From Spirochaetia bacterium (GTDB lineage Bacteria > Spirochaetota > Spirochaetia > UBA9216), in NCBI GenBank assembly GCA_963675665.1, contig OY776510.1, positions 2,720,001 through 2,784,000 on the forward strand: a stretch of 64,000 bases of DNA, read 5' to 3'. Numbering within the stretch: position 1 is the stretch's first letter; each line of letters begins with the position of its first letter. This document shows positions 42,427-47,033 of the stretch, one piece after another. The notes beneath the pieces are model-generated. The model was not told where the DNA came from. It ran no database searches and saw only the letters and a program-made list of their open reading frames with translations. A program made the position numbers and the translations under genes.

Positions 42427-43194
42427 TCATACCGTTATAATTTCAATTCCACTGGAAACAAATGATTTCTTAACGCTTTTACTGATTTTGTCGTCAGTGA
42501 TTATTTTTGTTATTTTGGAAATGTCGTCCAGATAGTTAAAACAGACGTTTCCGAATTTTGTCGAATCAGCAATCAGATAAGTTTCTTTTGCAATTTCCAT
42601 CATCGCTTTAATTACCGGAACGTTTGATGCTTCGTAATATGTCAGTCCGTATTCGGCATCAATTCCGTCTGCCGTCATAAACAGCTTGTCGGCATATTGA
42701 ATACCTGACAGAGGATCCCGGTTGAAATTACGTATTGTTGAATACTGCTTTTCAATCTCTCCGCCCAGCATGAAAAGGCTGATATTATCAAGTTCGGAAA
42801 GTTCAAGAGCCAGGGAGAGCGAATTTGTTATAACCCTGAATTCAAAATCAAGTCCGCTGAAGATTCGTCCTGCCAGCATTGTGATTACGCCCGGGCCTAT
42901 CAGGATTGTTTCTTTTTTTTGAACCAAAGTTGAGCAGTATTCTGCAATCCTGATCTTTTCATTTATAGCTTTACTGAGCAGCGCTTCACGGGTAGGTCCG
43001 GGATAATCCTTTTTATAAAAGACCTCGCCGCCCTTGCCCTGTAGTACTTGTCCTGAATCTTCGAGAAGCTTGATGTCTCTCCGGATTGTGGCTGTAGAAA
43101 CCTTGAATTTTGCAGAAAGTTTTTTTAGAGTTGTTTTTTCTTTCAATCGCAGAATTTCAGTGATTCCTGCCAGCCGCTCTCTCTTGTTTTTCAT
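42427..43194 (-). CDS. DeoR/GlpR family transcriptional regulator
   Basis: 'F.VS.ATIRRD' HTH, 'VITNSL', 'LGG', 'ADSTKF'. Confidence 0.93.
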   Translation of the reverse strand: MKNKRERLAGITEILRLKEKTTLKKLSAKFKVSTATIRRDIKLLEDSGQVLQGKGGEVFYKKDYPGPTREALLSKAINEKIRIAEYCSTLVQKKETILIGPGVITMLAGRIFSGLDFEFRVITNSLSLALELSELDNISLFMLGGEIEKQYSTIRNFNRDPLSGIQYADKLFMTADGIDAEYGLTYYEASNVPVIKAMMEIAKETYLIADSTKFGNVCFNYLDDISKITKIITDDKISKSVKKSFVSSGIEIITV

Positions 43195-43213
43195 GCTGTA
43201 TACCGGAGGCTGC

Positions 43214-43549
43214 TTAAAGCAGGTGAAAAAGCCCTACTGTTTTCTTTTTAGGCAGGTATTTGTTGAAAATCTCAGCAGCTTTTTCTGTTTTTTCAATAAA
43301 AACCTCAATGCCTTTTTCTTTAAGTGCGTGAACCGCCGAATCGCTTATTTTTATTGGCATCATAAAGCCGAGGCCGACTACAACAACTTCGGGTTCAGCT
43401 TTGAAAACATCATCCAGATCTCCCGGTTCTATGCTGTTGCGGCTTTCAATCCACCATTTTGTATTCATATGATCGCTGTAAACAATAGTGTCGGAGCGCG
43501 AGACCTTGCCCCGAAACAAAAGCTTTCCCAGAGATACTGATTCTATCAT
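43214..43549 (-). CDS. Mth938-like (DUF498/AAMDC) domain protein
   Basis: 'PEVVVVGLG', 'LKEKGIEV...T..AA..FN', C-terminal 'GLFHL'. Confidence 0.8.
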   Translation of the reverse strand: MIESVSLGKLLFRGKVSRSDTIVYSDHMNTKWWIESRNSIEPGDLDDVFKAEPEVVVVGLGFMMPIKISDSAVHALKEKGIEVFIEKTEKAAEIFNKYLPKKKTVGLFHLL

Positions 43550-43552
43550 TAA

Positions 43553-43834
43553 TTATTCCTTAACATATGAAATTATTTTCTCCATGTCGGCTTCCATTCC
43601 GATTCCTGTAAGAAAGGAAAGAGTTTGAATTACCGGTATGTCTCCGACATCGCCGACAGGAGTTGTTGTAACTATCAGATCCACACCGTCAAGTTTTGAC
43701 GGGACTTCAGCCGCTTTGCACTGAATAAGATTGACTTTAATTCCTTTCTCCTCGAGATGTTCTTCAATTTTCCTCAAAACTACAGTTGACGTCGCCACTG
43801 CTGTTCCGCATGAAACAAGAATTTTTTTTGCCAT
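43553..43834 (-). CDS. PTS galactitol-family EIIB
   Basis: 'ILVSCGTAVATST' phosphorylation loop. Confidence 0.93.
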   Translation of the reverse strand: MAKKILVSCGTAVATSTVVLRKIEEHLEEKGIKVNLIQCKAAEVPSKLDGVDLIVTTTPVGDVGDIPVIQTLSFLTGIGMEADMEKIISYVKE

Positions 43835-43896
43835 TTAACACTCCTATAAAAAGTCAACCACAAGCTAAAAATATAAGCTTATGATCTAGTCGGATA

Positions 43897-45009
43897 TCAA
43901 CCGACCATTACAGCTTCCCATGCTGCTGCCTGCATTTCCCTGTATTCTTTTCTAAAAGCCATTTTCATCGGATCAAACGGCTCTCTGGTTTTTAAAATTG
44001 TATATACCAAAGTGCTCATCTTGCGGGCGGCAGCTATTACACTCTTACCCGAGCCTTTCTGCTTCTTCATCGCTGCATACTTCGTCATTATTCGGTACGT
44101 CCCGGTCTTCTTTTGCATACGAACCATTCCCATCACCATCTGTACGAAGGCTGTCCTCAGTTCTACAGGCCCACGCTTTGTTATATGTCCATGATGTATT
44201 GTCATATTTGAGTTCTGCACCCATGGCACAAGCCCGGCGTTTGCTGCATATTTCTTCGCACTATCATATCTGCCGATATCGTCTGTATAGGCTCTTACTG
44301 TTGCTGCTGTTATTAGACCCACGCCTGGTATTGTCTGCAGAAGCTCAACATCTTCATCGTCCTCCACAAGCTCAGCCAAAACCTTTTCAAGCTGCTTGAC
44401 TTGCGATGCCTGATTATCTATCATATCCAGTAACGGTATTACCGTTTTGGCAGCGCTTCCGTAAAAGTCGTGGTCCTCGAGACCGTTCAGGATTCGCTGC
44501 CTTTCTTTTTTACTCTGCAGCTGTCCGCGTTTGGTCTCTATTCCATAACCAAGTAATAAGCCATGCACCTGGTTCTTTAACGACACAACAGATTTTACCA
44601 GTATCGACCTGGATTTCAGCACCCTTCGAATATCCTCACTCTCTTGGGAACATAATATCGATTCAGGCAGCATGTCTTTCTCAAGAAACTCCGCCAGGGT
44701 GCGTGCATCATGTTTGTCTGTCTTTTTTACAGATTCATTCACTACCTTGAATTTCAAAGTATTCACTACAACCACTTCGACTCCAGCCTTTAACAGTTTA
44801 TTGCGGAAATAACGGGCATTCCCGGTTGTTTCCACCGCTGCTCTCAACTCATATTCCTCTTCACAATATTCATCCAGCATTTTCAGAAATGCTCCATAAC
44901 CATTTCCGCTGGTCGGATACATTCCCAATTGATCAATTTTTCGGTCTTCACTTAAAAGGCATACTGTAAACTGCGTTTTGTGAAGATCCACGCCAATACT
45001 CATCTTCAT
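43897..45009 (-). CDS. IS110-family DEDD transposase/recombinase
   Basis: 'GVDLHK', 'AVETTG', 'KTDKHDA' (DEDD RuvC-like); 'TIPGVG', 'AGLVP..QNS', 'AAARK'. Confidence 0.95.
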   Translation of the reverse strand: MKMSIGVDLHKTQFTVCLLSEDRKIDQLGMYPTSGNGYGAFLKMLDEYCEEEYELRAAVETTGNARYFRNKLLKAGVEVVVVNTLKFKVVNESVKKTDKHDARTLAEFLEKDMLPESILCSQESEDIRRVLKSRSILVKSVVSLKNQVHGLLLGYGIETKRGQLQSKKERQRILNGLEDHDFYGSAAKTVIPLLDMIDNQASQVKQLEKVLAELVEDDEDVELLQTIPGVGLITAATVRAYTDDIGRYDSAKKYAANAGLVPWVQNSNMTIHHGHITKRGPVELRTAFVQMVMGMVRMQKKTGTYRIMTKYAAMKKQKGSGKSVIAAARKMSTLVYTILKTREPFDPMKMAFRKEYREMQAAAWEAVMVG

Positions 45010-45039
45010 GTTCTATCTCCAATAGTTTGAAGCAGTGCC

Positions 45040-45200
45040 TATACGGTGAATTGTTCCATTCTCCTATCCGGTCTCGCAGACCATTGAATGTTTCGGTTAC
45101 GGCTCTTCAATCTCCTAAACGGTCTCGCGGACCAGTAAAAATGTCGAACAGTAACCTTACTGCCTCAATTAAAGTTAAGGCAGTATATCAATTCACCAGC
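45040..45200 (-). ncRNA. Candidate bridge RNA (seekRNA) in the IS110 non-coding end
   Basis: Closing stem GGTGAATTG/CAATTCACC, 5' hairpin TACTGCCT..AGGCAGTA, two repeated modules TGGTC(C/T)GCGAGACCG-NNTAGGAG-A(T/A)TG with guides matching junction sequences. Confidence 0.75.
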
Positions 45201-45296
45201 TCATGAAGACTTTTTATCATTCCTCCTATAAAAGTTTACCGCCAAAAAGCTGCAAAGCAGCCCGGATGGCGGGGATTGCATCCTGATGATATATCA

Positions 45297-47033
45297 TCAT
45301 TGTACATCTGCATACTTTTGAAGAAAAGACTTAATTTCTTCTTCTGTCTTAAATTTTAAAATATCATCAGCTGCTTTTTTACAATCCTGATAACTGACGG
45401 ACCTGATAATTGAAACAGCTTCCGGCAGCATTTGTCCACTCATGCTTAATTCATTGATACCAAGTCCGATTAAAGCGGGAATTGCAGCCGGAATACCCCC
45501 GAGCTCGCCGCAGATTCCCGCCCATCTGTTATTTTTATGAGCATTATCGACAGCAGTTTTTAATGAACGAAATACTGCCGGGCTGAAGAGCCTGTAATAT
45601 TCTGAAACATTCTCATTGATACGGTCCGCGCAGAGGGTGTACTGCGTAAGATCGTTTGTTCCAATGCTGATGAAATCACATTCTTCCGTAAGGATGTCGG
45701 AAATCATGACTGCAGCAGGGGTTTCTACCATAACGCCGACTTCGATATCACCGTTAAAAACAGCGTTCTCATTTTCCAGTTCAGAAATGCATTCGGATAT
45801 TACTGCCCTGGCGGCACGAAATTCCGTTACGTCAGCTACCATCGGGAACATGATCTTTATATTGCCGAAGGCCGCCGCCCTTAGTATTGCCCTAAGCTGA
45901 GTCTTGAAAATATTCCTGTATTTAAGAGAAACTCTGAGTCCCCTTAACCCAAGGAACGGATTATCTTCTTCAGGAAGATTAAAACATTTTACTTCTTTAT
46001 CTCCTCCGATATCAAGAGTCCTGATAATCACCATCCCGGGGTTAAGCTGTTCAGCTACTTTTTTATAGAAATAATATTGCTTTTCTTCATCCGGTAAATT
46101 AACTGTATCAAGAAAAAAGAATTCTGTTCTGAGCAGTCCGACGCTCCGGGCACCGCAGCCGACTGCATTCTGAAGATCCTCAAGCGACCCTATATTTGCT
46201 GATAATTCAATCGTTCGTCCGTCGATTGTAACCGGCTCAAGGTTTCTGACTGCATTAAGGTGTTCTGTTCTCAGGCGGTATTTTTCTTTTTCAGTCATGA
46301 ATTCTGATCTTTCATCATCATTCGGTGAAATCCAGATTTTGGCCGTTTCAAAATCACGGGTGTCGAGAAGAACCTCTGATTTCGGTTCCGTTTTACTCAG
46401 GGCTCCTGCAGCACCGACCACCGCCGGGATGCCGAGCGTTTTAGCCAGAATGGCGACATGCGAGGTCACTCCGCCCTGTTCGGTGATTAATCCTTTTACG
46501 TTATTTTTATTCATCAGGGCCGTATCGGAAGGCATGAGATCCGCTGCAATTACAATAGAATTTTCAGGTATGTTCGAAAGATCCCGGCTTTCCATCCCCA
46601 GCAGGTTTCTGAGAATTCTATTGTATACATCGGTAAGATCAAGAAGCCTTTGCCGGTTGTAATCGTCCTCACCGAGCGCGGTAAAAAGATCGGCGTAGCC
46701 GGTGAAAACTGTCTTTAAAGCTTCTTCGGCACAGACTTGTTTGTCTTTGATTATCTCCCTGATTTCAGTTGAGAACTCCTCATCTTCAATCATCGTCATC
46801 TGAGCCCTGAAGATGTGCCCGAATTCCTTACCGAGAGCACCGGAAAGATTGCTTTTTAAATTTTCAAGTTCCGATCTCGCTGCTTTAAATGCAGCTTCAA
46901 TCCTGTTGTATTCAGCTTCACTGTTTTCAGTTTTTTTACTGCTGAATGAAAGATCCTGTTCCTGGTAGATGAAGGCATAACCGTAACTGATGCCGGGAGA
47001 AGCGCTTCGACCTGTTAGCTGTCCCATACTCAT
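45297..47033 (-). CDS. ptsI: PTS enzyme I
   Basis: 'GGVTSHVAILA', 'VGLLRTEF', 'RTLDIGGDK', 'NPFLGLRG', 'SIGTNDLTQY', 'CGE'. Confidence 0.96.
   Translation of the reverse strand: MSMGQLTGRSASPGISYGYAFIYQEQDLSFSSKKTENSEAEYNRIEAAFKAARSELENLKSNLSGALGKEFGHIFRAQMTMIEDEEFSTEIREIIKDKQVCAEEALKTVFTGYADLFTALGEDDYNRQRLLDLTDVYNRILRNLLGMESRDLSNIPENSIVIAADLMPSDTALMNKNNVKGLITEQGGVTSHVAILAKTLGIPAVVGAAGALSKTEPKSEVLLDTRDFETAKIWISPNDDERSEFMTEKEKYRLRTEHLNAVRNLEPVTIDGRTIELSANIGSLEDLQNAVGCGARSVGLLRTEFFFLDTVNLPDEEKQYYFYKKVAEQLNPGMVIIRTLDIGGDKEVKCFNLPEEDNPFLGLRGLRVSLKYRNIFKTQLRAILRAAAFGNIKIMFPMVADVTEFRAARAVISECISELENENAVFNGDIEVGVMVETPAAVMISDILTEECDFISIGTNDLTQYTLCADRINENVSEYYRLFSPAVFRSLKTAVDNAHKNNRWAGICGELGGIPAAIPALIGLGINELSMSGQMLPEAVSIIRSVSYQDCKKAADDILKFKTEEEIKSFLQKYADVQ

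Follow-up and report, generated by a model that had tools for sequence, protein, structure and literature searches.

IS900, IS901 and IS902 of Mycobacterium avium, which belong to the IS110 family, are reported to insert into host genes in one orientation, behind the ribosome-binding site and ahead of the start codon; they represent a different clade and host from the element described below, and their orientation is opposite to that of the target gene. Our literature search did not recover a statement of this IS900-type targeting, and a search for bridge RNAs directed to Shine-Dalgarno (SD) sequences, of limited coverage, found no report of one. Bridge or seek RNAs of IS110-family elements have been catalogued, as stated in one preprint, in tens of thousands of loci (bioRxiv 10.64898/2026.10.21.760802). 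In published bridge RNAs a linker with G is followed by a 9-nt guide, which a single linking U connects to a stem-loop (PMC11208158). In IS621 the bottom strand is read by the 5' side and the top strand by the 3' side (PMC11208160; PMC11208158), and the rule given for IS1111-type seekRNAs is that the complement of the top strand lies 5' of the match to the bottom strand (PMC11187229). That account of IS1111 also mentions "a few" IS1111-like elements with an upstream non-coding region, whose RNAs it does not describe (PMC11187229). ISPpu9 of Pseudomonas putida is an IS110-family element with a short non-autonomous partner, MITEPpu9, that bears its end sequences (PMC12288879).

Here we analyse an IS110-family element in the genome of a Spirochaetia bacterium (one contig, 5.15 Mb), located in a window of 64,000 nucleotides, which is the whole stretch of DNA that was studied. 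We propose, with a probability of roughly 0.85, that its left end encodes a bridge/seek RNA that would guide the recombinase, module 1 of this RNA binding the target and module 2 the donor. The element, its ends and the target at this copy are as follows:

45222..43841, minus strand: whole IS110-family element, 1,382 bp, one of 15 copies with different flanks
45010..45222, minus strand: non-coding left end, 213 nt, predicted from its fold z-score and 67 orthologues to encode the bridge/seek RNA
43897..45009, minus strand: gene of the DEDD/Ser recombinase, 370 aa (PF01548 and PF02371)
45218..45222, minus strand: left-end start GAATG, the right donor half-site according to the flanks of the copies and guide covariation
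43841..43847, minus strand: right-end terminus ATAGGAG, the left donor half-site, the same in 15/15 copies and in nearly all orthologues
45208..45217, minus strand: left arm of the subterminal inverted repeat, ATAAAAAGTC, reverse complement of 43855..43846
43846..43855, minus strand: right arm of the subterminal inverted repeat, GACTTTTTAT, from the sequence and the orthologues
45223..45229, minus strand: left half of the target at this copy, ATAGGAG, identical to the guide at 6/7 positions
43832..43840, minus strand: right half of the target at this copy, in which a 6-nt spacer leads to the ATG of the PTS IIB gene

The left end is followed by the 370-aa ORF (45009..43897) and a 55-nt right end, and the 15 copies in the genome have 0-1 differences each. 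A T/C difference at element position 1335 (about window position 43888) divides them 6 to 9, and contigs of the sequencing runs have the other letter at 43888. The boundaries are defined by the flanks: on the left, variable DNA ending in AGGAG is followed by GAATGATAAAAAGTC, and on the right the element closes with GACTTTTTATAGGAG, beyond which the DNA is again variable. By the convention used here, the left end begins past the AGGAG of the target and the right end closes with the AGGAG of the element itself; this pentamer, carried by target and element alike, is all that the flanks of the 15 copies have in common. Consistent with the IS110 family, the 15 copies have neither terminal inverted repeats nor a target duplication beyond the common core. 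The subterminal inverted repeat (GACTTTTTAT / ATAAAAAGTC) is 10 bp long, its arms stand 10 nt apart when the ends are abutted, and it is conserved in orthologues, the core of the left arm, ATAAAAAG, being invariant in all 67. At L044:2598-2680 the right end is partly duplicated, and its last ~30 nt, including TGACTTTTTATAGGAG, are found twice in tandem.

The element lies in a PTS operon (window 42427-47033) with the order ptsI (578 aa), IS, lactose/cellobiose-type IIB (93 aa), followed downstream by a DeoR-like regulator and an HPr-like ORF. It is absent from the ptsI-IIB junction in all seven relatives that have this locus, in which a short spacer and a Shine-Dalgarno, for example TATAGGAG or ACAGGAG, separate the two genes; because ptsI and PTS-IIB are adjacent in 7/7 relatives, the element is an insertion at this locus. 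The original prediction had located TATAGGAG at both junctions. The sequence is present at 45230..45223 and at 43848..43841, the left occurrence being target DNA rather than a part of the element, and in other copies the left-hand site reads TTAGGAG, TAAGGAG or AAAGGAG. Contigs from four sequencing runs, which break at the element ends, contained no circle junction and no empty site; the sole contig joint (43860 to 45190, with 6 other letters between) has the appearance of a short MITE-like copy and not of a circle.

The gene had been called a DEDD recombinase at first, and a Pfam search agrees, as DEDD_Tnp_IS110 (PF01548, 9.3e-18) and Transposase_20 (PF02371, 1.4e-17) both exceed the curated cut-offs. 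Residues D8, E60, D98, D101 and S267 are invariant across 25 relatives, an alignment with ISCro4 matches the serine and the motifs IGVD and KTDxxDA, and by analogy the five residues would be equivalent to D11, E60, D102, D105 and S241 of IS621. ISCro4 and IS621 are the only solved relatives, and the similarity to them (E ~1e-15) lies chiefly in the C-terminal domain. A tblastn search against plasmids returned one spirochaete plasmid at 77% and otherwise matches below 30% identity, and identity to an ISEc11-family transposase was only ~23%. Distant relatives (32-41% protein identity) are found in Lentisphaeria, Victivallales and Clostridia contigs (L077-L098), most of which have the donor-module motif ATAGGAGANTGG upstream of the gene; the donor end sequence thus seems to be conserved far outside the spirochaete clade.

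The proposed bridge (seek) RNA would be ~160 nt long, with an outer stem that encloses a 5' hairpin, a target stem-loop and a donor module placed in the multiloop. Its parts are:

45197..45189, minus strand: outer stem, 5' strand, GGTGAATTG (also written GGUGAAUUG), helix 1
45053..45045, minus strand: outer stem, 3' strand, CAATTCACC (also written CAAUUCACC), helix 1
45185..45158, minus strand: 5' stem-loop, in the MFE fold, with a hairpin at this place in all orthologues read
45095..45156, minus strand: span of module 1 inside the basal stems GGUUAC/GUAACC and GUUC/GAGC, helix 2
45143..45135, minus strand: module 1 (target-binding) 5' guide, CATTTTTAC (also written CAUUUUUAC), from orthologue comparison
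45134..45120, minus strand: module 1 capping hairpin, TGGTCCGCGAGACCG, helix 3
45119..45112, minus strand: module 1 3' guide, (U)UUAGGAG, TTTAGGAG, followed by ATTG, from left-flank identity
45092..45084, minus strand: module 2 (donor-binding) 5' guide, AACATTCAA (also written AACAUUCAA), from left-end covariation
45083..45069, minus strand: module 2 capping hairpin, TGGTCTGCGAGACCG, helix 4
45068..45061, minus strand: module 2 3' guide, (G)AUAGGAG, GATAGGAG, followed by AATG, from right-end identity

Both modules consist of a CGN linker, a 9-nt 5' segment, a U, a GGUC/GACC hairpin, a G and an 8-nt 3' segment, an architecture that agrees with the one described for published bridge RNAs (PMC11208158). 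The 216-nt leader folds at -65.2 kcal/mol, compared with -46.6 +/- 4.0 for shuffled sequences (z = -4.6; 0/200 equal). We gathered relatives from genome and metagenome contigs, aligned 67 distinct leaders and counted pairs in four helices (the outer stem, the basal stems of module 1 and the two capping hairpins), leaving out the 5' stem-loop, where the alignment is gappy. Over these leaders 94.9% of cells are paired and 17/29 pairs are compensatory, with both sides changed; the observed values were reached by 0/500 shuffles, and slid controls were only 23-42% paired, with the proviso that the orthologue sets are mutually related, so that the shuffle tests here and below overstate independence. 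In the outer stem 87.6% of cells are paired and 7/9 pairs have changed on both sides, the basal stems of module 1 are 96.4% paired with 3 compensatory pairs, and both capping hairpins are 100% paired, that of module 1 with 4/5 compensatory pairs and that of module 2 with two pairs changed on both sides in 27 and 18 sequences. All the motifs named in the original prediction are found where it had put them on the minus strand, and the check that it proposed, alignment, folding and covariation in orthologues, returned a fold and a conservation beyond chance, with the structure kept, compensatory changes and covariation between guides and DNA. A scan of 43700..45400 against Rfam, with E values up to 10, gave only chance-level snoRNA and lncRNA matches.

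Other pairings within the leader were also considered. The alternative folds ATTGAA/TTCAAT and TGTTC/GAACA, which had been suggested together with the bridge RNA, were rejected as conserved structure after the comparison (80.9% paired vs 80.4% in shuffles), the ATTGAA/TTCAAT helix having 0 compensatory pairs. A pairing in the RNA between the CAU of module 1 and a downstream AUG was discarded as well, since AAUGA(A/G)G is retained where CAU is lost. RNAalifold pairs the 3' strand of the 5' hairpin with a segment before the transposase RBS (columns 87-90 with 219-222; 4 pairs, with 16-24 sequences changed on both sides), and the segment past the outer stem (~45025-45040) repeats the 5' strand of the 5' hairpin, whose 3' strand lies at ~45158-45170 (minus strand). 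This may represent an alternative pairing, or a pseudoknot that couples the RNA to transposase expression.

The guides were parsed with a fixed pattern, 14/141 loci that failed the parse being left out, and loci without a recognisable end were excluded from the corresponding counts. Module 2 corresponds to the ends of the element itself. Within its 5' guide, CAUUC (45090..45086) pairs with the left-end start GAATG, and the two vary in step: over 20 distinct guide/end types with 7 different pentamers, which include the pairs GAATG/CAUUC, GCACG/CGUGC, GTATG/CAUAC, GCATG/CAUGC, GAACG/CGUUC and GAGTG/CACUC, the Watson-Crick fraction is 0.94 vs 0.81 in shuffled pairings (0/2000). Of the resemblance first noted between the segment AACATTC and the element end, a pairing is shown only for the five nucleotides CAUUC. 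The 3' guide, AUAGGAG, matches the right end ATAGGAG in 61/65 types in which the right end was read; one of the remaining types has AUAGAAG with ATAGAAG, and three are mismatched.

Being of the same sense as the left target, the 3' guide of module 1 pairs with the bottom strand. Its identity to the flanking DNA on the left, calculated over 96 guide-flank pairs from 23 guides, is 0.30, 0.80, 0.95, 0.96, 0.99, 1, 1 and 1 at successive positions, and for the first four positions together it is 0.753 vs 0.512 in shuffled pairings (0/2000). Because identity is 0.30 at the first position and 0.80-1 thereafter, the working target guide is 7 nt long, and the 3' guides of 8 nt given originally have to be shortened to an effective 7. 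Examples are the guide UACAGGAG with TACAGGAG targets and the guide CAAAGGAG with (C/A)AAAGGAG targets. The assignment of module 1 to the target and of module 2 to the donor, made at first from a single sequence, is borne out by this covariation of guides and DNA across orthologues. A clade from termite-gut and other metagenome contigs (L153, L157, L158, L162-L165, L173, L176-L178) has an unchanged donor module and a target module that reads sequences of the CACGGAG / CACAGAG type; its flanks carry direct repeats of such a heptamer, with no start codon nearby, and in L153 two IS copies are only 8 bp apart.

All 15 copies are located between an AGGAG and an ATG that follows 5-7 nt further downstream and opens an ORF of 93-729 aa, with which each copy is co-oriented, and in 12/15 sites the ATG occupies positions +7..+9; among the orthologues the spacer is 6 nt at 38/86 sites. 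The 5' guide of module 1 is variable among orthologues except for CAU, which opens the target 5' segment in every parsed AGGAG-type guide save that of L110 and in 0/9 parsed non-AGGAG guides, whose flanks have no nearby ATG. We give about even odds to a pairing of CAU with the ATG at +7..+9, and go no higher because the non-AGGAG guides come from few lineages, perhaps 2-3 independent events. For the remainder of this guide, the match to the right flank in the SD-type majority is weak (0.40-0.47 vs 0.37-0.44 shuffled). It amounts to 0.455 vs 0.401 shuffled (2/2000) over +1..+6 of the sites with a 6-nt spacer, and when G-U pairs are allowed at these sites it is no better than shuffles (205/2000). 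A single fixed register was rejected, as offsets 0, +1 and +2 each slightly beat the shuffles and none is clean. The register also differs between modules, since position -3 of the donor guide pairs with +1 and position -3 of the target guide with +2 or +3; the donor 5' guide pairs from the first base past AGGAG, and the target 5' guide seemingly 1-2 bases further out.

To summarise the observations, the orthologues conserve the RNA structure and show covariation in three of the four relations between guide and DNA, and the insertion sites follow a clear pattern; from these we infer production of the RNA and its binding by the recombinase. The mechanism that we propose would begin with an excised copy whose ends abut, so that the donor module reads the junction of right end and left end. 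This junction would also join the two parts of a candidate split promoter, both read in the sequence:

43852..43857, minus strand: TTGACT, candidate -35 box, in the right end
45219..45211, minus strand: TGaTAAAAA, left-end part of the candidate junction promoter

The spacing of 17 nt was counted by hand, with 11 nt up to the right end and a further 6 nt in the left end, and a junction promoter is plausible, with a -10 box that does not have the usual final T; a promoter scan of the integrated copy found none upstream of the RNA on the minus strand. The RNA would then bind the recombinase, its target module would read the SD, the spacer and the ATG, and the DEDD/Ser recombinase would exchange strands inside the common AGGAG. 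Given an IS621-like geometry, the final two letters of AGGAG (AG, or CT on the bottom strand) most likely form the core, with 3' guides of 5 nt plus the core AG; we place it there because this is the geometry of IS621 viewed from the other strand, and the placement agrees with the 7 + 3 convention as well. The 3' guides close with AG, which is complementary to CT, and the 5' guides have at the core position two nucleotides that are variable and non-complementary to the core. The element would land between the SD and the start codon, co-oriented with the gene, and its right end would bring a new AGGAG at the old distance.

Because the right end closes with TTTTTATAGGAG, the gene downstream still has a Shine-Dalgarno, spaced as before the insertion. 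A search for terminator-like sites inside the element found none, and transcription running on from the host operon could serve both the expression of the element and the continued translation of the gene downstream. The genome also contains a MITE of ~100-160 nt with the ends of the IS, GAATGATAAAA at its start and TTTTATAGGAG at its finish, and three hairpins. There are 88 nhmmer matches to it genome-wide, 39 of them full length, with examples outside the window at G000:C1:2973058-2973366 and 1652333-1652891, and it forms head-to-tail arrays of 3 and 5 copies. When the right end is reached (n=63), it is followed in 48 cases by a start codon with an ORF of 60 aa or more and in 15 by the left end of another element; 5/15 IS copies directly abut a MITE right end. 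At the present locus, the stretch from the ptsI stop to the IS (window 45223-45300, minus strand) measures ~80 nt compared with 30-50 nt in relatives, and has MITE-like features (a GATGATATATCATC palindrome, a GC hairpin and an ending AAACTTTTATAGGAG) that fall under the nhmmer threshold; it is possibly a decayed MITE.

Explanations other than a fully RNA-guided insertion have to be weighed against these data. The leader could be a cis-regulatory 5' UTR of the transposase mRNA, with the recombinase binding the repeated AGGAG sites on the DNA and using no RNA guide. Its position immediately before the transposase gene, from which no terminator separates it, is compatible with this, the RNAalifold pairing of the 5' hairpin with the pre-RBS segment looks regulatory, and the 10-bp subterminal inverted repeat could be a protein-binding site. 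However, recognition by protein alone predicts neither the joint change of five RNA-loop nucleotides and the left-end start, seen in 7 variants, nor the agreement of the variable triplet that precedes AGGAG in module 1 with the insertion sites of each lineage, and the solved relatives in the family use exactly such guide loops; we regard this explanation as very improbable. An unlikely but more restricted alternative is that the RNA guides the donor and the SD half of the target only, the spacer and ATG being unread and the position of insertions resulting from where AGGAG occurs and from harmless survival. The right-flank match of SD-type guides, which barely exceeds that of shuffled pairings, and the lack of complementarity at +1 and +2 speak for it, as does the fact that 6 nt is the commonest natural spacing (27%). 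Nevertheless, a 6-nt spacer is found at 12/15 sites compared with 27% of the 951 AGGAG-ATG gene starts of the genome (binomial 2.9e-5), and 15/15 insertions precede an ATG although only ~1,271 of the 6,609 AGGAG pentamers in the genome precede one within 4-9 nt. Moreover, in the non-SD clade, where the guides are high in information, the 5' guide fits the right flank at 8/9 positions in L163 and 7/9 in L176 (L169 and L173 have 5 contiguous matches), and the loss of CAU coincides exactly with targets other than gene starts.

It is also conceivable, if rather doubtful, that the insertions flanked by ATAGGAG arose when the donor module recognised the right end of an existing MITE or IS, in end-to-end "half-match" events such as a 2026 preprint reports for bridge recombinases. 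Nine of the 15 left flanks read ATAGGAG, identical to the donor 3' guide and fitted better by it than by the target guide, and four of these are MITE ends; the IS copies that abut MITE right ends and the head-to-tail arrays point the same way. On the other hand, ATAGGAG departs from the target guide at only 1/7 positions, four naive sites fit the target guide 7/7, and relatives without the element have TATAGGAG as a natural Shine-Dalgarno at this locus.

Taking the results together, our joint reading, held tentatively and at somewhat less than even odds, is that the element represents a lineage intermediate between IS110 and IS1111 whose RNA reads the translation-initiation signal, the SD by the 3' guide and the ATG by CAU. 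If this were so, every well-formed gene start would be a potential landing site, the spare Shine-Dalgarno of the right end would keep insertions translationally neutral while the host operon transcribes them, and the same machinery would spread the ~100-nt MITE that stacks in arrays before genes. The guide set would be tuned to a degenerate signal present genome-wide (SD plus ATG) instead of one unique site, the replacement SD and the co-orientation with the gene suggest how the element limits harm, and the companion MITE would depend on the end sequences only. As judged from sequence, the bridge RNA appears real but largely expected for this recently described class, and it is the choice of target that is unusual. 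The known mechanism is unchanged, and the element adds to it a useful and testable variant, with no new principle. Bridge and seek RNA recombinases are being developed as programmable genome-writing tools, for which natural diversity is the design space, and the relatives collected here provide a large natural set of guides and targets, with about 90 distinct RNAs.

Comparison with the described systems places the element between two of them. Like IS621 and ISCro4, it has a DEDD + Ser recombinase and an RNA in the left end, upstream of the gene as is distinctive of the IS110 group, with a 5' stem-loop followed by the target loop and then the donor loop; each loop has a 5' guide of ~9 nt, a capping hairpin and a shorter 3' guide ending in AG, and the RNA reads target and donor DNA on both strands. 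A promoter whose parts lie in the two ends, here a candidate, has been described for IS621 and ISEc21. Unlike in IS621 and ISCro4, the 5' side reads the top strand on the left-end / right-target side, the donor module lies in a multiloop closed by the outer stem and not by a stem of its own, the subterminal inverted repeat is of 10 bp instead of 2-3 bp, and the protein similarity, at E ~1e-15, is mainly confined to the C-terminal domain; in addition, the 5' guides do not pair with the core as those of IS621 do. The order of the guides is reversed relative to IS621, as the original prediction had recognised when it read the sites on the opposite strand; since this order has been published for IS1111-type seekRNAs, it is not a new mechanism.

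The likeness to IS1111-type elements (ISEc11, ISPa11, ISKpn4) accordingly includes the complement of the top strand preceding the match to the bottom strand in the RNA (PMC11187229). It extends to long subterminal inverted repeats (10 bp here; the criterion is ~7-17 bp) and to the 10 nt between the abutted repeat arms, equal to the published 7 + 3 terminal extensions (PMC11187229), and the donor-binding nucleotides are in a multiloop, as described for many IS1111 RNAs (PMC11208160). Unlike in IS1111-type elements, the non-coding region and the RNA are upstream of the transposase gene instead of downstream (left 213 nt, right 55 nt). Its accompaniment by a MITE with its end sequences resembles the pair ISPpu9 and MITEPpu9, although the MITE here is ~100 nt long, has three hairpins and ~88 matches, forms arrays and always ends in an SD before a gene, whereas MITEPpu9 carries an sRNA gene and targets REP sequences. 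The element thus fails one defining feature of the IS110 type and one of the IS1111 type and mixes the rest, and as a compact natural example that combines two published layouts it is relevant to the suggestion that, in evolution, the RNA changed from one element end to the other (PMC11208160).
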